In this document: positions 5,491 to 18,364 of the stretch, one piece after another
How positions within the stretch are numbered: the first letter of the stretch is position 1
Layout: every line of letters starts with the position of its first letter
IMG/VR virus record: IMGVR_UViG_2585427779_000013
Location: 1-52,997 of that record
DNA from: a virus
Lineage: Duplodnaviria > Heunggongvirae > Uroviricota > Caudoviricetes
Direction: 5' to 3' (one strand)
DNA length: 52,997 nucleotides
Translations under genes and position numbers: made by a program
Notes under the pieces: model-generated
The model's input: only the letters and a program-made list of their open reading frames with translations
Databases searched by the model: none
What the model was told of the DNA's origin: nothing

Positions 5491-6543
5491 TCAAAGAACG
5501 CCAGCGCGTGTATCACGTAGCGTTTTTGGTTTAAGCAGGAAATCAAGTGTCGCAGTAAAGCCATTGCCGAAGTAAAAATCTGAAGCCGTGTTTTTGAACG
5601 TTTCGAAGTAGGCGACAAAGCCGTTAATGCTTTTGTCTTTCAGGTAGTCAGTGAACGCATAGATCTTGCGTTCAAGATCCCGATCCAGTTCGGCAGGTGG
5701 TAACAGGCCGTCAAACGTGCTGTTAAATGCTTCCACCACGTCGGCAGCGTTTACAGTAGCTGATAGCTTGCGCCATTGTTCAGCATCAGCCAAATACCCA
5801 TCAAACTTAGTTACCCGGCAAATGTTGATAGGCTTAGGTGTTCCGCCACGGCTACGCCATTGCGTTAAAGCCCACTCAATCACTAATGTGATCTCATCCT
5901 CCGTATACGCTTTACGTGTTTTTGTTTCTGTCAGTAGTTCTACGAATGGCTTAGCGTCACGACATTTGCATCCTGCCTTGTCGTTGTAGAAGGCAAGGCA
6001 ACGCAATGCCGCTTCGTTTACGCCATCCTGATTGACCATTTTTTGTTCATTTTCGACAATACACGAAGTGTATATATCTTTTTCTCTTTCTTTTTCTACT
6101 TCTAATTCTAATTCATGACCCTTTCCTGACCCGGTCATGACCCTATCATGACCTTTTTGTGTTGGATTGATTAACTTTTCTAATTTTAATTGCTCCTTCG
6201 CTGTGTTTATGGCGGCCCTGTAAGCGCTTTTAGAAGTCATTGATTGGTCCAGCCTTTTCAATAACTTTAAACAAGTTATGTGGCCTTGAGAACATTCAAA
6301 CAAACCAATTTCGATGAAGTATTTCATCATTTCTTCTATACGTTTTTCAGTAGATCCGACGTTTCGCGCAATTATTCTTGCGTCATGTCGTAGGTCAAAA
6401 GTTAGATTGTGCTGATCTACGTCATAAGTTATTAGTTCTAGGCAATACCAATAAAGCCCGTACCCTTCCAGGCCATAATCTAATAAAACGTTTTGAAGTT
6501 TTTCATCGCGGTTCGCATCGCTATCATGCTTAAACCACTTCAT
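5491..6543 (-). CDS. phage replication initiation protein (O-like replisome organizer)
   Basis: 350 aa; N-terminus MKWFKHDSDANRDEKL is the hallmark of phage replisome-organizer N-domains by recall; lies immediately upstream of helicase module. Confidence 0.75.
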   Translation of the reverse strand: MKWFKHDSDANRDEKLQNVLLDYGLEGYGLYWYCLELITYDVDQHNLTFDLRHDARIIARNVGSTEKRIEEMMKYFIEIGLFECSQGHITCLKLLKRLDQSMTSKSAYRAAINTAKEQLKLEKLINPTQKGHDRVMTGSGKGHELELEVEKEREKDIYTSCIVENEQKMVNQDGVNEAALRCLAFYNDKAGCKCRDAKPFVELLTETKTRKAYTEDEITLVIEWALTQWRSRGGTPKPINICRVTKFDGYLADAEQWRKLSATVNAADVVEAFNSTFDGLLPPAELDRDLERKIYAFTDYLKDKSINGFVAYFETFKNTASDFYFGNGFTATLDFLLKPKTLRDTRAGVL

Positions 6544-7107: not shown

Positions 7108-7755
7108 ATGAAAACAAAATGGTATGACTTAGCAAAGCAGCTCATGCGGGCGCAGGGCATGAGTCAGGATTCACTCGCAGATCTCATGGGGATAACTAAA
7201 GGCGGCCTGTCACACTGGCTTAACGGTCGCCGCGAGCCAAATCTTGAAGATATTGCGCGGATTATGCGGGCGCTTGGGCGTCGTCAGTTCACTGTTACAC
7301 ATGATGGTATGGTCATTGATGATTCTGTTTCTAATACACTTCAGGCCGCACCGCCGCGTGATTTAGGTAGTTACCCGGTTATTGACTGGAAGGACACAGT
7401 AAACAATATGGATGACACAAGGCGATCAGCATTACCACACGTTACGACTAGCGTTATTTGTTCAGATGATAGTTACTGGCTGGTTGCCAAAGGTGAATCA
7501 ATGAACGCGCCGCAGGGGTTAAGCATCCCGGCGGGGACGATGATACTTGTTGACCCGCACGCGCCAGCTATTGACGGCAAACTGGTTATAGCCCAGCTTG
7601 AGGAAGGGCAGATACCGACGTTTAAACAGTTGATTATTGATGGAGGTCAAAGGCTTTTACGTTCGCTGAATCCGCTGTATCCGCCAATCCCTATGAATCC
7701 AGAATCAAAAATTATAGGCGTGGTGGTTGATGCGAAGATCGTAACCCTGCCATAA
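7108..7755 (+). CDS. CI-like phage repressor (HTH plus LexA/S24 peptidase domain)
   Basis: 215 aa; N-terminal XRE-type HTH; C-terminal S24 autoproteolysis motifs (AKGESM serine, TFKQL lysine). Confidence 0.85.
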   Translation: MKTKWYDLAKQLMRAQGMSQDSLADLMGITKGGLSHWLNGRREPNLEDIARIMRALGRRQFTVTHDGMVIDDSVSNTLQAAPPRDLGSYPVIDWKDTVNNMDDTRRSALPHVTTSVICSDDSYWLVAKGESMNAPQGLSIPAGTMILVDPHAPAIDGKLVIAQLEEGQIPTFKQLIIDGGQRLLRSLNPLYPPIPMNPESKIIGVVVDAKIVTLP

Positions 7756-8695: not shown

Positions 8696-9226
8696 ATGTC
8701 TTATTCAAAACATGGAATGACGCACACAAAACTTTATGAAGTTTTTAAAGGAATGAAAACGAGATGCAGGAAAACCGATAAGAATCCACGAAATAAACAC
8801 TATAAGGATAAGAATATAACTATATGTGATGAATGGTTGAATGATTCATCAAAGTTTATTGAGTGGGCTTTCAATAACGGTTATCAGGAAGGGTTAGAGA
8901 TAGACAGAATTGATAACGACAAAGGTTATTCACCGGATAATTGCCGATGGGTTACACATGCTGAAAACATGCGCAATACATGTAGAACTACGATGTTAAC
9001 AGTGAGCGGGGAAACTAACACAATACATTATTTTTCCGAAAAATACGGTATATGTGAACGCACCATATATACAAGATTACGTCGCGGCTGGAGTCATGAG
9101 GCCGCTGTACTTCTTCCTTTAAGAAAGGGGAAACGATGTGAAGAAAGATTTATACAAAAAATTGTGGCTAATTCAGCAACAATTAAAAGCGCCAAAATCT
9201 CAGCGCAATTCATACGGTGGATATAA
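8696..9226 (+). CDS. HNH homing endonuclease
   Basis: 176 aa; pattern FKGMKTRC...ICDEW...IDRIDNDKGYSPDNCRWVTHAENMRN typical of phage HNH endonucleases; 3' end overlaps erf by 89 nt. Confidence 0.65.
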   Translation: MSYSKHGMTHTKLYEVFKGMKTRCRKTDKNPRNKHYKDKNITICDEWLNDSSKFIEWAFNNGYQEGLEIDRIDNDKGYSPDNCRWVTHAENMRNTCRTTMLTVSGETNTIHYFSEKYGICERTIYTRLRRGWSHEAAVLLPLRKGKRCEERFIQKIVANSATIKSAKISAQFIRWI

Positions 9227-12459: not shown

Positions 12460-12678
12460 ATGGAACGCGAATTGATGCTTTATTGCGTAGAAGGTGGCGT
12501 AGGTCACGATGCCTACGTCGCTGGGAAAGGCTATCCAGCCGATGAAGTGCTTTCTAATATGCACTTCAGAGAAAATGAAAGCCAGGTGTCTGTGTGGAAA
12601 CGGTGCATTGATGGTATTGAGGTTGTAAGTATAGAACGGTATTTAGGCACGTTTGATTACGGTGTTATTGAGGCTTAA
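12460..12678 (+). CDS. hypothetical protein (72 aa)
   Basis: ATG at 12460 with GGAGGAAG RBS; track ORF 12400 starts earlier without RBS. Confidence 0.45.
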   Translation: MERELMLYCVEGGVGHDAYVAGKGYPADEVLSNMHFRENESQVSVWKRCIDGIEVVSIERYLGTFDYGVIEA

Positions 12679-12776
12679 TTATGGACGATACATTGTTTTA
12701 TATGTGCTGTTGCTGGGGTTTTATTGCCTTATGCCTGTTTATCAGGTGGTTTATTGAATACCATATGAGGTGATCT

Positions 12777-12968
12777 ATGAAAAAGGTTGGCGAATACATG
12801 ATACCGGATAACGCTAAATTAGCCGGAATCGGTCAATTTGGTTGTTATTACTATAACTGCGTTGGTGATATTTATCAGGTCAGTATTGTTGGTGGTGTAC
12901 AGCATTTTCGTCTTATGCACTTTGAATTGAGCGCACTTAAAAAGGCGGTGTTAATGTATGAAGTTTAA
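12777..12968 (+). CDS. hypothetical protein (63 aa)
   Basis: GAGGTGA RBS upstream of ATG. Confidence 0.45.
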   Translation: MKKVGEYMIPDNAKLAGIGQFGCYYYNCVGDIYQVSIVGGVQHFRLMHFELSALKKAVLMYEV

Positions 12969-13161
12969 ACACTATAGGGAATGGAAGATTCCAGAATCAG
13001 CAACAAAGGCAGCGCCCGGAAATGTTTCCGGCGTTTATTTTTATATGGAAGGTAAATGGTATTTCGGCAGCAGGCCGGATCACTATTATCAGGAAATGTG
13101 TGATTCTCATGTACTTGATATAAAATTTCGCGTGCAAGGCGGTGTGATTGAGGACGTTTAG
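12958..13161 (+). CDS. hypothetical protein (67 aa)
   Basis: ORF overlapping neighbours. Confidence 0.4.
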   Translation: MKFKHYREWKIPESATKAAPGNVSGVYFYMEGKWYFGSRPDHYYQEMCDSHVLDIKFRVQGGVIEDV

Positions 13162-13162
13162 A

Positions 13163-13390
13163 ATGATGCGTGCACTTATTGACTTCATTATGGGCTGGCT
13201 ATTTTGTTCTTTTTTTGTATTCTCATGCATAGCTACGGTTCTTATTGGAATTTTATGCGGTGTGTCTTTTGTTACATGGGAACTACCAGAAATGCCATCA
13301 CCTGATGATGCGCTTTATATGTTAAGGATCATTATTGCTGTTAGTGTATTTGTTGGGTTCTTTTTCGCTGATTCTACTGATTATTTATGA
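13163..13390 (+). CDS. small membrane protein (75 aa)
   Basis: ATG 13163 with GAGGA RBS; two predicted TM helices. Confidence 0.45.
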   Translation: MMRALIDFIMGWLFCSFFVFSCIATVLIGILCGVSFVTWELPEMPSPDDALYMLRIIIAVSVFVGFFFADSTDYL

Positions 13391-13391
13391 A

Positions 13392-13625
13392 ATGGCTTTA
13401 TTTAACCTGTCAGAGCCGCAATTTAACGCCGTAAAAGCTGCCGCCCGCGCAGCGCTTTCTGCCTGCAAAGCGGAGGTGGAGAAAAACGGCTACAGCGATA
13501 AAGCTACGCGGCTGATATTAGAGAAGCATTATCGCAAGGTCGCCCCACTAATCAGTATTGAGCGCTTTGTGTGGTTGGTGGGGTATTTAAACAACCGTTG
13601 GGGAACGGAACAGGATTATTTCTAA
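13392..13625 (+). CDS. hypothetical protein (77 aa)
   Basis: ATG immediately after upstream stop; start uncertain (alternative 13335). Confidence 0.35.
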   Translation: MALFNLSEPQFNAVKAAARAALSACKAEVEKNGYSDKATRLILEKHYRKVAPLISIERFVWLVGYLNNRWGTEQDYF

Positions 13626-13634
13626 GGGGGCGTA

Positions 13635-14174
13635 ATGAAAAATGATTACGGCGGCAGCTATACGCCGAAAGAAATAAAAGACTTATGGCAAACGCCAAAA
13701 CCTGTTTTTAGAGGAATGGATCGTGAATTCGAATTCGTCGCGGATGTGGCGGCAAACAAGGCAAACGCATTAATCCCGCGATATATAACCGAAGAAATGG
13801 ACACGCTCCATTATCCGTGGGGAGCGGTGGCAATGCCTGGTGAGTATGTCTGGCTTAATCCACCATATTCTAATCCGGGGCCATTCGTTGATAAAGCGGC
13901 GCTTGAACACAGCCGAAACCATATCGGATGCGTAATGTTATTGCCCGCTGATATTTCTGTTAACTGGTTTATGAACGGCGTGGAGACGGCAAACGAATGC
14001 CGATTAATTACGCGCGGGCGGCTGGCGTTTATCAATGCTGCGACGGGTAAACCAGCAAGCGGAAACAATAAAGGGAGTTTGTTCTTGATCTGGCATCCAC
14101 GATGCAGACATGAATGTATTTTCACGCAGATAACACGTAAAGAGCTATATGCAAGAGGTGCAGAAAATGAGTAA
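13635..14174 (+). CDS. phage DNA N6-adenine methyltransferase (Dam-like)
   Basis: 179 aa; catalytic NPPY motif (VWLNPPYSN) and overall resemblance to small phage Dam family by recall. Confidence 0.7.
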   Translation: MKNDYGGSYTPKEIKDLWQTPKPVFRGMDREFEFVADVAANKANALIPRYITEEMDTLHYPWGAVAMPGEYVWLNPPYSNPGPFVDKAALEHSRNHIGCVMLLPADISVNWFMNGVETANECRLITRGRLAFINAATGKPASGNNKGSLFLIWHPRCRHECIFTQITRKELYARGAENE

Positions 14175-14658
14175 AGCGGCTGAATTGCTAAGACTTGCGG
14201 CTGAAACTATTGAGGCAAGAGGGGAACAAAACGGATACGATCGAAAAGAAGAAAAATCAGCGCCAAAAATAGCCACTATTTACAACGCTAAGAAGGGGAC
14301 AAATCTAACCCCGCTTGATGTATGGGATCTACTAATTTGTCTCAAGGAGGGGCGATTAGAGGCCATTTTAAGCAATGGTAGCGACCCGCTCGACACTCTT
14401 ATAGACCTTATTGCTTATAACGCGCTAAAAGCGGAGCAAATATTAACGGAGCGGGAGGAAGAACAAAGAAAGAAACAGGCTGTTTTTGATATGCCGTTAA
14501 ATTGCGGCTGTAAGAATGTCACTATATCCGGCGGCACGATCGCCGCCAGCGGGATAACGCTAAATGGTAGCCTTTCAAATAGGATTGATGTGAAGTTCGA
14601 TAACGAATCACTACTACGCGCGGCGGGGTATCATAAAAATGGAAAGGGTGACAATTGA
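14167..14658 (+). CDS. hypothetical protein (163 aa)
   Basis: ATG 14167 with AGAGGTG RBS; overlaps Dam gene end by 8 nt. Confidence 0.45.
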   Translation: MSKAAELLRLAAETIEARGEQNGYDRKEEKSAPKIATIYNAKKGTNLTPLDVWDLLICLKEGRLEAILSNGSDPLDTLIDLIAYNALKAEQILTEREEEQRKKQAVFDMPLNCGCKNVTISGGTIAASGITLNGSLSNRIDVKFDNESLLRAAGYHKNGKGDN

Positions 14659-15142
14659 CAGGTTATTGGCCTGCGTTTATGTCGCCGTTTTCGTGATCAT
14701 CAACCTTATTGTTAACCATTGCGGCCCGTGGGTGATTCCGATCACTACGGTAGCCGCTGTGTGTGTCAATATGATGATCCGCGACTTCCTGTTATATGAC
14801 GGCGGCCTGAAATGGTCGGCTACAACATGCGCCGCCGCTGGCGCAATCACTGTGCTGATAAATTACGACGCCGGAATGGTGGCGATCGCGTCATTCGTTG
14901 CTGTTGTTTCCGGTGCGCTTATTTCTGGCGGCGTTTACCGGGTTTTGCCTGGTGATTTTGATTCGAAACGCTGGCCTGCCAATATAGCGTCAGCCATTGG
15001 CGATGCGTTGATTTTTCCTACGCTATCGTTCATGGCGTTTATGCCGGAAATATCAGCGATGCAATTCATCTCAAAAATGGCAGCGGTAACGGTGATCACT
15101 ATCATCATGCGCCGCTATTTCACGTTTGAGGGCAGAAAATGA
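14639..15142 (+). CDS. polytopic membrane protein (167 aa), possibly transporter-like
   Basis: About 5 hydrophobic helices; sits between the two methyltransferase genes; family not recognised. Confidence 0.45.
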   Translation: MERVTIDRLLACVYVAVFVIINLIVNHCGPWVIPITTVAAVCVNMMIRDFLLYDGGLKWSATTCAAAGAITVLINYDAGMVAIASFVAVVSGALISGGVYRVLPGDFDSKRWPANIASAIGDALIFPTLSFMAFMPEISAMQFISKMAAVTVITIIMRRYFTFEGRK

Positions 15143-15897
15143 GCAGGGCTAAACATTGGTTAAATAATTGGCTTAGAAGTTGGGTGGTATGGTCGCTGTA
15201 CGACGGCAGCGGGTACGCCGTTAAAGACTGGGCGGAAGCAGGATATAAGTGCTATTGCTTCAACTATGACGGCGCAAATCACGGCGATTATGAAGGCGTT
15301 AAAATCATTCATCCAAATATTGAATACGTTAACGTATGGATTGACAGCCATTTCCTGGTGATGTTCTCCCCTGAATTGTCTGTTTATCCAGAGCCTGACA
15401 TTATCTTGGGCTTTCCGCCGTGCGATGATCTCGCTGTGTCTGGCGCTCGCTGGTTCGCTGATAAACGGAGAAAAGATCCTGACTTCCAGGTGAAGGCTGC
15501 GCATAATGCAAAACTGGTAGAAAAACTGGCGAATATGCATAACGTGCCGTGGATGGTGGAAAATCCGGTGGGCGCACTGTCAACGTTATGGCGTAAACCG
15601 GATTTTATCTTCAATCCTTGCGCTTACGGTGGCTACCTGCCGGAAGATGACAAACATCCTGCTTTCCCGGATGTTTACCCGGCGCGCGACGCGTATACAA
15701 AGAAAACTTGTATTTGGTGCGGTAACGGATTTAAGCAGCCGCTTTTCAGACCTGTAGATCTTAACTCTGGTGATAACCCGGGGTGGGCGAAAACAGGAGG
15801 CAGGACGAAACGAACAAAGATGATCCGCTCACTAACGCCGCGCGGCTTTGCCCGTGCTGTATTCCTGGCTAACCATGACCGCGTTTTACCGGACTGA
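15139..15897 (+). CDS. putative DNA cytosine-C5 methyltransferase-like protein
   Basis: 252 aa; PC motif (GFPPCDDLAVSG) and ENV-like motif (MVENPVGAL); divergent from canonical motifs, so assignment is tentative. Confidence 0.5.
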   Translation: MSRAKHWLNNWLRSWVVWSLYDGSGYAVKDWAEAGYKCYCFNYDGANHGDYEGVKIIHPNIEYVNVWIDSHFLVMFSPELSVYPEPDIILGFPPCDDLAVSGARWFADKRRKDPDFQVKAAHNAKLVEKLANMHNVPWMVENPVGALSTLWRKPDFIFNPCAYGGYLPEDDKHPAFPDVYPARDAYTKKTCIWCGNGFKQPLFRPVDLNSGDNPGWAKTGGRTKRTKMIRSLTPRGFARAVFLANHDRVLPD

Positions 15898-16056
15898 AGT
15901 TTACAAAATGGCGTCATTGCGTGATATGGATCACATAATGGCGCTTTTCGCCTTGTTCTGGTGTATCCATTTTGTATACTTCAAGCAAACAAAATGCTCT
16001 TTAAAAATCCGGCAGCGCTGAAATGCGTAGAAATCACCTGAAAAGGAGAGAGCATT

Positions 16057-16233
16057 ATGTCTTTTGATAATTACCAATGGCATGACGACTATGAACGAGA
16101 AAGCGTTATGCGTGCAATGTGCAATGTATGCAGCACGAAGAAAGGAGGCTGTAACGAGTGCAACGAATGCTTAGAACATTGGCTAAGGGCTGGACACGCC
16201 GAAAGGCTGAACGAAACAGAGAATCAAAAATAA
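16057..16233 (+). CDS. small Cys-rich protein (58 aa)
   Basis: AAGGAGAG RBS then ATG; MSFDNYQWHDDYERESVMRAMCNVCSTKKGGCNECNECLEHW; not in ORF track. Confidence 0.4.
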   Translation: MSFDNYQWHDDYERESVMRAMCNVCSTKKGGCNECNECLEHWLRAGHAERLNETENQK

Positions 16234-16247
16234 TCGGGGTGGTTTTT

Positions 16248-16853
16248 ATGCAAAACCCTAAAAAACCCATAAGACGCCGTTGCAAATGCTGCGGCGTTTT
16301 TTTTGAGCCTAAATATCACAATCAAACGTGGTGCAGCGATGAATGTCTGGAAGAACTGAAGTTTGACCAGCTATGCCGCGACCGTGAGAAGGCTATGAAG
16401 GCTATGGAGCGGAAGAAACGCCGTGATAGCCAGAGGGAAGAACGCAACCGGAAGCGTAAACAGTTAAATCCGCGTAGTTATTGGATCAAGCAAGTTCAAA
16501 ACGTATTTAACGCATATATTCGCGAACGTGATGCGCGGTTGCCGTGTATATCCTGCGGGACTTACTACGGTGAGCAATGCGGGTGGGATGCGGGCCATTA
16601 CAGGACGGTTGCCGCCGCAGGACACCTTCGCTTTAACGAGGATAATTGCCATAAACAATGCAGGCACTGCAACCAGACATTAGACGGAAACATAGGAGGG
16701 TATCGCCCGGCACTGATTCGAAAAATTGGCCTCGCCAGGGTGGTAGCGCTGGAAAACAACAATGATACGCATAAATGGACGATCGCAGAATGTAAGGAGC
16801 TAATAAACATCTATCAGGCTAAATTGGACGCTTTAAGGAGAAAGGCGGCATGA
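16248..16853 (+). CDS. ninG: NinG/Rap-family recombination protein
   Basis: Conserved Cys pattern and strong similarity to lambda NinG (RRRC…PRSYWIKQ…LPCISCGT…WDAGHYR…LRFNE…HKQC) by recall; start set at ATG 16248 (track ORF begins upstream). Confidence 0.8.
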   Translation: MQNPKKPIRRRCKCCGVFFEPKYHNQTWCSDECLEELKFDQLCRDREKAMKAMERKKRRDSQREERNRKRKQLNPRSYWIKQVQNVFNAYIRERDARLPCISCGTYYGEQCGWDAGHYRTVAAAGHLRFNEDNCHKQCRHCNQTLDGNIGGYRPALIRKIGLARVVALENNNDTHKWTIAECKELINIYQAKLDALRRKAA

Positions 16854-17257
16854 ATGAATATTCTTTTAGTCTGCCTTACCCGCCGTCGAATAACCGCTAT
16901 TACCGACATTCACGCGGTTTTCACTATATCAGCAAGGTTGGAAAAGAATACAGGGAACAGGTAAGAGACATCATCGAGCTATTAAATTTAAATATTAACC
17001 TACCTTGCCGACTGGCAATTGCAATTTACGCCGCGCCGCCGGATAACCGGATCAGAGATCTGGACAATATCCCTAAATGCCTTTTTGACAGCCTTACTTA
17101 TGCCGGATTCTGGAAGGATGACGGGCAAATCGACTCAATAAAAATTGTTCGCTGCCGGAAGGTAAAAGGCGGACGCTTGTTTATTAAGATCCGCGAACGC
17201 GGCGACCTACTACCGGATATTGACGAATACGCGACTAATATGTGGGGTGAGCAATGA
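16850..17257 (+). CDS. rusA: RusA Holliday junction resolvase
   Basis: 135 aa; SLPYPPSNNRYYRH…RDLDN…GGRL pattern matches E. coli RusA by recall. Confidence 0.85.
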   Translation: MNEYSFSLPYPPSNNRYYRHSRGFHYISKVGKEYREQVRDIIELLNLNINLPCRLAIAIYAAPPDNRIRDLDNIPKCLFDSLTYAGFWKDDGQIDSIKIVRCRKVKGGRLFIKIRERGDLLPDIDEYATNMWGEQ

Positions 17258-17436
17258 AAAACGAAGTTAAAGATCTGCAAATAGATATTCAGCGCGACGA
17301 GCGTGATTTAGAGACGGTCCGACAAATCCAGGCTTTCCACATGCGCGAATTACTTGCGCTGAAAGAGTTCGAAAGAAAGCTGGTGCAATCCATTTCTGAT
17401 CGTAAACGGCTGGCGGCACGTTATGAGGGCAAATAA
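17254..17436 (+). CDS. hypothetical coiled-coil protein (60 aa)
   Basis: ATGA-coupled ORF between rusA and Q-like gene. Confidence 0.4.
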   Translation: MKNEVKDLQIDIQRDERDLETVRQIQAFHMRELLALKEFERKLVQSISDRKRLAARYEGK

Positions 17437-18164
17437 TGAATTTAGAATCCATTCTAAAATTCCACTTTCCTAAATCACCGCGATTATCTGACGAAAGCCG
17501 GGGCACGTCCCCGGACGCTCTTAATACGACGGATGCGCTAACAGCTGCGGGTATGGCGCAATCGCGCGTAGAGCTTGGCTATAGCGCTTTTTTGGGAAAG
17601 ATGGAGCTATCACAAGCCGAAAAACATAAGGCCGTAGTTTTGCTTACAGAGCGTTTAAGGGCTATGGCAAAAGATTATGAATACGTTATGGAACTGGACG
17701 AGGCCAAACGCAATGATCTCATTATTCTTGTTGCCGTTTTCGCGTTTCGGGATTATTGCCAGAGTGCGGCGACCGAAAAAGTTTGCCCTAAGTGCGGCGG
17801 TAACGGGCTTTCACCACATCCATATTGTGAGTACGCATCGACAGTTTGCTCGCGGTGCGGCGGCAAAGGCTACGTTAAAAACCATTGCCAGCGGTGCAAG
17901 GGTCGTGGCGAAGTACCGGATAAAGCAGCCAGCGAGGCGGCGGAAATGCCAGTGTTCAAAACATGCCAGCACTGCGGCGGGCGCGGGTACTCGCGTTTCC
18001 CTGTAGATCTTGTCCGGCAGGCGGTTAATCAGCTTGTTTTCCCGGTAAGCCGATCAACATGGTGGAAGAAATACCGGGCTTTCTATGAAGACGCCATTGC
18101 TGAATTGTTCAAAGAAGAGGCGCGGGCTGACAACGAAATTAAACGAGTGACGCGGGGTGAATAA
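17436..18164 (+). CDS. putative late antiterminator (Q-like) with DnaJ-type zinc finger
   Basis: 242 aa; four CxxCxGxG repeats (CPKCGGNG, CSRCGGKG, CQRCKGRG, CQHCGGRG); located directly after ninG-rusA where lambdoid phages place Q. Confidence 0.45.
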   Translation: MNLESILKFHFPKSPRLSDESRGTSPDALNTTDALTAAGMAQSRVELGYSAFLGKMELSQAEKHKAVVLLTERLRAMAKDYEYVMELDEAKRNDLIILVAVFAFRDYCQSAATEKVCPKCGGNGLSPHPYCEYASTVCSRCGGKGYVKNHCQRCKGRGEVPDKAASEAAEMPVFKTCQHCGGRGYSRFPVDLVRQAVNQLVFPVSRSTWWKKYRAFYEDAIAELFKEEARADNEIKRVTRGE

Positions 18165-18364
18165 TGGATAAGCTGGAAATAAACGATCAGTTTGCCGTTA
18201 TCTTATTTGAAGATAAAACAGGCGGCGCATGGTGTAAGAAAGTCACTGGCGCGGAAGCGCGTTTAATATTGGGTATGGCAAGCGCGTTAAACGAAGGTGA
18301 ATTGCCAGCCGTGCCAATTGAGCCAGTTCATATTTACGGACGGAGTAACGACAATGAAGCCTAA
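18164..18364 (+). CDS. hypothetical protein (66 aa)
   Basis: ATGA-coupled ORF. Confidence 0.4.
   Translation: MDKLEINDQFAVILFEDKTGGAWCKKVTGAEARLILGMASALNEGELPAVPIEPVHIYGRSNDNEA

Follow-up and report, generated by a model that had tools for sequence, protein, structure and literature searches.

The window of this work is the whole 52,997-nt stretch of the virus record IMGVR_UViG_2585427779_000013 (IMG/VR; Caudoviricetes), and at positions 13635-15897 it holds a block of four genes in which a Dam-type adenine methyltransferase gene and a Dcm-like C5-cytosine methyltransferase gene enclose the genes of a DUF6378 protein and of a small membrane protein (Table 1). The block is part of the N-antiterminated early-right ("nin-like") operon of a temperate coliphage of the mEp021 type (mEpimmI). 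No cognate restriction endonuclease was found for either methyltransferase among the ten proteins scanned, and the two enzymes probably methylate the phage DNA in lytic growth, which would protect it from restriction. An earlier note on this DNA, made from its letters, had described two orphan methyltransferase genes flanking a membrane protein and had suggested methylation-dependent regulation; its observation was largely correct and its interpretation partly so.

The four genes overlap end to end, as read at their junctions in the sequence. A GGGGG ribosome-binding site precedes the Dam gene. The open reading frame (ORF) of the DUF6378 protein opens at 14149, and its ATG, preceded by AGAGGTG, gives an 8-nt overlap with the Dam gene; the ATG of the membrane protein is in turn located 20 nt inside the DUF6378 gene, and the ATG of the cytosine methyltransferase gene overlaps the TGA of the membrane-protein gene as ATGA. 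The block was already known: GenBank MH706966 and RefSeq prophages carry its annotation, and it is conserved in the mEp021-type phages found. In mEp021 (MH706966) the four genes recur as gp30-gp33, in unchanged order and with about 90% nucleotide identity, annotated as putative N6-adenine methyltransferase, hypothetical protein, putative membrane protein and putative cytosine methyltransferase, and the block of the window differs from them only as an allelic variant, its best E. coli prophage match being 96% identical. The four-gene order is also kept in a diverged relative (contig L006), in which the membrane protein is 54% and the C5 enzyme 67% identical to those of the window.

Table 1. Features of the four-gene block and of its surroundings, in window coordinates.
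Feature	Position	Strand	Basis or remark
Phage Dam-type N6-adenine DNA methyltransferase (adenine METHYLTRANSFERASE), 179 aa	13635-14174	+	Hidden Markov models, motifs, relatives
DUF6378 protein, 163 aa from ATG 14167	14167-14658	+	Pfam PF19905
Small polytopic membrane protein, 167 aa, divergent VUT (YhhQ-like) superfamily member	14639-15142	+	Profiles, predicted fold
Compact phage "Dcm-like" C5-cytosine DNA methyltransferase (cytosine METHYLTRANSFERASE), 252 aa	15139-15897	+	phrog_757, motifs, fold
Hairpin followed by a T-run, end of the block	15911-15944	+	Read in the sequence; TERM_4 of mEp021 (predicted t4), nutR2 region
Recurrent motif, ten copies	3976, 7023, 7866, 15900, 15967(-), 38926, 38954(-), 42464(-), 42533, 50857(-)		
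CI-like repressor	7108-7755		First in order, then ERF recombinase, SSB, a run of small genes and the four-gene block
NinF-like gene	between the four-gene block and NinG		
NinG	16158-16853		
RusA	16850-17257		
Q-type antiterminator	17436-18164	+	Pfam Antiterm, E 8e-32

Two orphan methyltransferases of phage families

The small NPPY adenine methyltransferase that the earlier note had placed at the left end of the block was borne out, the ORF being exactly the one proposed, with NPPY at residues 75-78 and D-V-A-A at residues 37-40. Its product matches Pfam PF05869 over profile positions 2-167 of 169 (E 3.7e-50; 170.3 bits, cut-off 28.1), the NCBIfam equivalog TIGR01712 (137.1 bits, cut-off 97.05) and phrog_111 (E 5e-62), and its top PADLOC model is "orphan methyltransferase" (E 1e-23). 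This full-length match above curated cut-offs, together with the catalytic and S-adenosylmethionine (SAM) motifs, places it in the phage Dam family, homologs of which were found in 1,841 of 50,697 phage records; a sequence search of the PDB returned no relatives. The closest group comprises M.EcoVT2Dam of phage VT2-Sakai (Sap34), the Dam of phage T1 (ST20) and the Dam group of HP1/HP2. Identity to Sap34 is 42% over the full length (E 4e-45), to ST20 37%, again over nearly all of the length (E 2e-31), and to the Dam-like enzyme of phage KarlJaspers 41%. In the alignment, the LNPPYS of the window enzyme faces LNPPYS in T1 and NNPPYS in VT2, and its ADVAAN faces LDAAAS and LDSAAS; NPPY and D-x-A-A align in the KarlJaspers enzyme, too.

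With the VT2/T1 group, the Dam of the window shares these two motifs, the orphan status and a nin-type early-region position in a temperate coliphage; it differs from this group in being translationally coupled to a DUF6378 gene. Sap34, a methyltransferase of 175 aa, is encoded between NinB and NinE of the Shiga-toxin phage VT2-Sakai, and the window enzyme is alike in size (175-179 aa), whereas the T1 enzyme is longer (237 aa). The Dam of T1 methylates the adenine of GATC. We took Sap34 to be M.EcoVT2Dam since it is the sole methyltransferase annotated in the retrieved 14-kb stretch of VT2-Sakai, and the reported target of M.EcoVT2Dam is GATC (PMC6602927). The target of the window enzyme is thus most probably GATC, a specificity that we infer from the VT2-Sakai enzyme, to which it is 42% identical; with relatives outside the mEp021 group in general it shares only 37-44% identity. 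In VT2-Sakai, a Lar-like restriction-alleviation protein is encoded near the Dam gene.

The last gene of the block had been described as coding for a divergent, cytosine methyltransferase-like protein with PC and ENV motifs. The ORF, the motifs DGSG and PPC and the predicted fold agree with that description; the "ENV", however, is ENP followed by V, and ENP is kept across the whole family. Motif I is DGSG (residues 22-25, in the context YDGSGY), motif IV is PPC (93-95, FPPCDD) with Cys95 as the predicted catalytic residue, and motif VI is ENP with Glu141 (ENP-V at 141-144, VENPVG); Lys188, Lys189 and a motif IX-like RSLTPRGFARA (230-240) are also present. An alignment of 27 family members has 51 invariant columns, among them G23, S24, P93, P94, C95, E141, N142 and P143, as well as the Lys-Lys pair at 188/189 and RSLTPRG near the C-terminus.

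Neither Pfam nor NCBIfam gave a match to this protein, and PF00145, the Pfam family of the C5 superfamily, was not matched even at E 10; among 120 listed relatives, only three have a precomputed PF00145 match. Because of this, the protein is filed under the phage Dcm-like family phrog_757 ("DNA methyltransferase", E 5e-87) and not under PF00145. The obscurity suggested by "C5-like" did not survive the database search, since the protein has more than 7,700 relatives, mostly of 226-262 aa, and members of the family occur in 1,519 of the 50,697 phage records, mainly those of Escherichia, Klebsiella and Salmonella phages. A single-sequence search of the PDB found nothing, and beyond it and Pfam only the family profile and the fold comparison were informative: the profile matched only C5 methyltransferases (DNMT3B, M.HaeIII), weakly (E ~0.1) and with motifs I to IV in register, and the predicted structure (predicted local distance difference test score, pLDDT, 88.6) resembles best DNMT3B, M.HhaI and other C5 enzymes, in agreement with a C5 catalytic domain.

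The nearest characterized relatives are those of T1-like phages. Identity to bas06_0055 of phage KarlJaspers (Bas06, MZ501090), a 711-bp gene annotated "Dcm-like C5 cytosine methyltransferase", is 62% over 232 residues (E 1e-106). K42 is a KarlJaspers/Bas06-like phage of the Drexlerviridae with a genome 95.4% identical to that of KarlJaspers, and its dcm gene, also of 711 bp, is the trigger of retron Ec86 (bioRxiv 10.1101/2023.08.16.553469). The K42 Dcm has DNMT3A as its closest structure, with predicted catalytic C82 and substrate-binding E128, K175 and K176; by LC-MS (liquid chromatography coupled with mass spectrometry), 5-methylcytosine (5mC) made in vivo was detected in the multicopy single-stranded DNA (msDNA) with the wild-type enzyme, but not with the C82A/E128A/K175A/K176A mutant (bioRxiv 10.1101/2023.08.16.553469). 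Residues C95, E141, K188 and K189 of the window protein correspond to these four with the same spacings of 46 and 47 residues, and one family member of 236 aa has exactly C82, E128, K175 and K176. Based on this correspondence of sequence, the Pfam-negative protein can be named with confidence as a phage Dcm-like C5 methyltransferase, its activity being predicted. A CCTGG site in the msDNA is needed for the triggering of Ec86 by the K42 Dcm, for which CCWGG was proposed by analogy with the host Dcm and not mapped (bioRxiv 10.1101/2023.08.16.553469); by analogy, the target of the window enzyme is possibly CCWGG as well.

The KarlJaspers/K42 Dcm and the window protein are both compact, single-domain products of a stand-alone gene with DNMT3 as best structural match. 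The window protein differs in a 13-residue N-terminal extension and in the residue after PPC, which is D instead of T, and its gene is located in the early operon of a temperate phage, whereas that of KarlJaspers/K42 is found in a virulent T1-like genome. With the Dcm of E. coli (M.EcoKDcm, CCWGG) and PF00145 enzymes such as M.HhaI it has in common the catalytic fold and the motif order I-IV-VI, and possibly, if the K42 proposal holds, the target of E. coli Dcm. By hhalign, no more than 27 columns of the family, those around the PC motif, align with E. coli Dcm (probability 1.2%); therefore, "Dcm-like" refers to function and fold and not to close sequence kinship. Family members have some 230-250 aa against the 472 aa of E. 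coli Dcm and, unlike classical C5 enzymes, a short and almost invariant region between motifs VIII and IX and no recognisable motif X. Members that stand alone, with no Dam, DUF6378 or VUT gene as neighbour, occur in a T1-like phage and a siphovirus-like contig of 44 kb.

Both methyltransferases are orphan, as the earlier note had held. A PADLOC scan of the four proteins of the block and six neighbouring ORFs matched no restriction endonuclease model, its hits being "orphan methyltransferase" and type II methyltransferase models, all on Dam, and Pfam found no nuclease partner among the surrounding early-region ORFs; these scans covered ORFs of 40 aa or more outside the late region. The sole nuclease-like match in the early region was a sub-threshold one to HNH_3 (E 0.0028; 17.7 bits, cut-off 24.8) in the ORF 8696-9226 (+, 176 aa), 4.4 kb upstream of the Dam gene, and we did not take this ORF as a restriction partner.

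The intervening genes and the operon of a temperate coliphage

The earlier note had placed a 5-helix membrane protein between the two methyltransferases. Such a protein is indeed encoded there, with five long helices in its structure model; it is not the sole intervening gene, the DUF6378 gene having been overlooked. The match of the DUF6378 protein to PF19905 (E 4.5e-6) is barely above the cut-off (27.3 bits against 27.1), phrog_9871 is matched with E 6e-17, RefSeq labels the same gene DUF6378 in E. coli GF66.2, and no relative was found in the PDB by sequence. At its C-terminus, the protein of the window is extended by about 70 residues, which are rich in Gly, Ser and Asn and have a very weak beta-helix-repeat match (E 0.89), and a 99-aa homolog in L006 (5374-5673) is devoid of this extension. 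In a Faecalibacterium phage, a 225-aa cytosine methyltransferase, a PF05869 Dam, ThyX and a DUF6378 protein are near neighbours (PMC13432834), such that these genes tend to travel together in DNA-metabolism regions.

By itself, the sequence of the membrane protein falls short of the Pfam profile Vut_1 (PF02592; 12.3 bits, cut-off 27.2; E 0.22; profile positions 6-149 of 152), and its homology to the VUT family was reached through intermediate sequences and profiles. Its close relatives are few. Among 1.84 billion representative proteins, a search with a profile found 257 relatives; when the window protein and 39 of the relatives from this search were scanned, 37 of the 40 sequences matched Vut_1 (best E 2.5e-15), and the family profile aligned with E. 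coli YhhQ by hhalign (E 6e-6, probability 85%, about 21% identity). These sequence comparisons relate the protein distantly to the VUT/YhhQ transporters. The YhhQ of E. coli, a queuosine-precursor transporter of the VUT family (PF02592) that has been implicated in preQ0 transport (Zallot et al. 2017, cited in PMC6884629), has 221 aa and the window protein 167 aa, both being small, all-helical and polytopic, and the record of mEp021 gives six transmembrane segments for its protein. Many of the distant relatives are of about 290-340 aa and carry some 140 additional residues not recognised by Pfam; among the 40 scanned sequences, a QueF-like domain (E 4.4e-7) occurs in one and a DUF5020 in one.

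The predicted fold has RibU as its best structural match (148 of 167 residues aligned) and resembles the substrate-binding S components of energy-coupling factor (ECF) vitamin transporters (RibU, FolT, BtuM); as it is like S components for several different vitamins, a substrate is not inferable from the fold. No DpdA/TGT or preQ0/queuosine/deazaguanine-pathway gene was found with Pfam among the early-region ORFs scanned, and hence a role of the membrane protein in deazaguanine modification is unsupported; the mEpimmI paper makes no mention of DpdA/TGT or of a queuosine-pathway gene (PMC11893012). Phage homologs of YhhQ are known and were reported to have no correlation to any phage group (PMC6884629). 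In an unrelated temperate phage (contigs L007, 6001-8258, and L009, 265-2534), the gene of a VUT homolog with 45% identity is separated by two unknown genes from that of a 300-aa PF01555 (N6_N4) methyltransferase after it, and a sister contig (L008, 301-2039) has kept the VUT-like gene and its neighbours with the methyltransferase absent. A general linkage of VUT-like and methyltransferase genes was rejected after examination of the neighbours with Pfam and hhalign, as a single phage type has the PF01555 gene and other contexts show no link.

The 3.2 kb around the block share up to 96% nucleotide identity with E. coli prophages and 88-91% with mEp010, mEp013, mEp021, mEp044, mEp515, mEp554 and MagusPhagus, temperate coliphages from human faeces that constitute the Nus-dependent, non-lambdoid "mEpimmI" group (PMC11893012). 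The block is present in 35 of 5,426 complete E. coli genomes and is chromosomal every time. Because the gene order in the window is that of mEp021 and of the prophage in E. coli GF66.2, with recombination genes before the block and NinG-RusA-Q after it, the block is placed in the delayed-early rightward operon. In these phages, a third nut site, nutR2, and the predicted terminator t4 are located directly downstream of the cytosine methyltransferase gene (PMC11893012); TERM_4, at 5930-5963 of the mEp021 locus, was positioned in the window by the offset of the methyltransferase gene and coincides with the hairpin that ends the block.

A promoter scan of 12600-16300 gave no excess that would indicate an independent promoter (7 sigma-70-like sites, 7.4 expected). 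Since the block is part of an N-antiterminated early-right operon and has no such excess, the four genes are expected to be silent in the lysogen; with the operon repressed, a comparison of the methylomes of a lysogen and a cured strain, as had been suggested, would likely be uninformative.

Some features of the surroundings are worth recording. The gene at 13392-13625 (+) ends 9 nt before the Dam gene and sits where mEp021 has ipe ("inducer of pleiotropic effects"); it has no Pfam match at E 0.01 and no PADLOC match. In the Q-type antiterminator, a zinc-finger region of the DnaJ type (CxxCxGxG) was matched as well, with E 2e-6 and below the cut-off. The antiterminator is followed in the window by a small ORF (18164-18364), and a Lar-like restriction-alleviation protein is encoded directly after the Q gene in L006 (9188-9415).

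Site frequencies and the role of the enzymes

Across the window (1-52997), GATC occurs 244 times for 249 expected and CCWGG 111 times for 122 expected, and no clustering of GATC was seen in counts by 2-kb bins. Many 6-bp palindromes are nearly absent (observed/expected), among them TCCGGA 2/25, CCGCGG 0/20, GGCGCC 0/19, GATATC 0/15, AGGCCT 2/15, GCCGGC 0/10, CTGCAG 0/10, AAGCTT 0/9.5 and CACGTG 0/8.4; GGWCC is also low (19, 35 expected). The phage seems to evade many restriction systems by loss of their sites while keeping those of the Dam and Dcm type, and the lack of avoidance of GATC and CCWGG fits with protection by methylation.

The explanation that we favour, and consider probably correct, is that the orphan T1/VT2-type Dam and the Dcm-like C5 enzyme methylate the phage DNA in lytic growth and protect it from restriction. 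Once the phage has infected a cell or has been induced, the four-gene block would be transcribed by read-through from the early-right promoter, and both enzymes, using SAM, would methylate the phage DNA as it replicates, at adenine N6 (most probably in GATC) and at cytosine C5 (possibly in CCWGG). The progeny genomes would thus be fully methylated on leaving the cell, irrespective of the Dam and Dcm status of the host and even if its capacity were limited or absent, and would be protected from the restriction systems that these marks block. A predicted cost would be sensitivity to retron Ec86, which senses the 5mC activity of the Dcm-like family. The DUF6378 and VUT-like proteins would be co-translated passengers.

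An anti-restriction role of both methyltransferases is plausible, and several points weigh against it. For each enzyme the target motif is an extrapolation from a relative, 42% identical in one case and 62% in the other, and the CCWGG of K42 itself relies on the analogy with the host Dcm and on the mutation of one msDNA site (bioRxiv 10.1101/2023.08.16.553469). Typical E. coli hosts already have Dam and Dcm, such that the selective benefit of a second set is not obvious, and the normal frequencies of GATC and CCWGG are also expected from host methylation alone. In BASEL, the methyltransferase genes of Drexlerviridae had no simple link to restriction resistance (PMC8594841). The conserved coupling of the VUT-like protein to both methyltransferases is left unexplained by the protective role.

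Some of these points lend themselves to a different use of the same methylation: the pacing of replication, recombination or packaging by hemimethylation, the blunting of mismatch or very-short-patch repair, or the modification of host DNA at takeover. The block is indeed located among recombination and replication functions (ERF, SSB, NinG, RusA), the Dam and Dcm already supplied by the hosts make a purely anti-restriction benefit questionable, and the absence of a simple correlation with restriction in BASEL (PMC8594841) goes in the same direction; however, there is no direct evidence for such roles in the mEp021-type phage group, and GATC is not clustered in 2-kb bins. We regard these other targets as unlikely.

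The earlier note had hinted at regulation, based on GATC sites said to be frequent next to a recurrent motif; in this reading, the phage Dam would methylate GATC near the motif and switch the binding of a regulator, thereby controlling gene expression or the choice between lysis and lysogeny. The motif itself, T(A/T)TACAAAATGG, is real and over-represented: with up to 2 mismatches it has 21 matches for 7.4 expected, a number reached in none of 100 shuffles, and it may be the binding site of a regulator. In the mEpimmI paper it is not described, as an operator or otherwise (PMC11893012). The form T(A/T)TACAAAATG(G/T), with at most 1 mismatch, has ten copies, which are intergenic and often arranged in inverted pairs 28-70 nt apart (15900/15967, 38926/38954, 42464/42533). 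One of these pairs, at 15900-15911 (+) and 15967-15978 (-), is directly downstream of the block and flanks the hairpin, with a GATC at 15929 between the two copies. Two copies flank the gene of the CI-like repressor. The copies show a weak trend towards closer GATC sites, with a median distance to the nearest one of 34.5 nt against about 70 nt at random (P = 0.08); this proximity is not significant, nor is the number of copies within 30 nt of a GATC (4 of 10, 2.6 expected, P = 0.25), and none of the ten copies contains a GATC or has one directly beside it. Moreover, GATC is as frequent in the genome as expected, the GATC at 15929 falls within the stem of t4, the predicted terminator, and outside the motif, and the host Dam would methylate these sites anyway. 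The claim of GATC abundance beside the motif therefore failed, and with no statistical support for methylation-dependent control at the motif we hold such control to be quite improbable.

Least credible of all is a module for non-canonical modification, in which the four coupled genes would act together, the VUT-like protein importing a preQ0-like base, a SAM-related compound or another precursor or cofactor, and one or both of the methyltransferase-fold enzymes adding a non-methyl group to the phage DNA. Although the genes are coupled, neither the early-region ORFs scanned nor the mEpimmI paper offer a protein like DpdA/TGT or of the preQ0 pathway, ordinary 5mC is what the K42 relative makes, the C5 family occurs in T1-like and other phages with neither VUT nor DUF6378, other VUT-like homologs are found in unrelated contexts, in L008 with no methyltransferase, and the phage YhhQ homologs are reported to follow no phage group (PMC6884629). 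If it were true, the mEp021-type phages would be an unrecognised class of hypermodifying temperate coliphages.

The block adds little beyond correct annotation. Orphan methyltransferases of the Dam and Dcm-like types rank with the most frequent accessory genes in phages of enterobacteria, each family being present in about 3-4% of all phage records. What is contributed here is small: the Pfam-negative C5 enzyme is firmly named, and the membrane protein receives a mildly new assignment to the VUT family. The naming of the C5 enzyme predicts that the phage would be sensed by retron Ec86, and the avoidance of palindromes that spares GATC and CCWGG offers a simple picture of how the mEp021-type phages may handle restriction.

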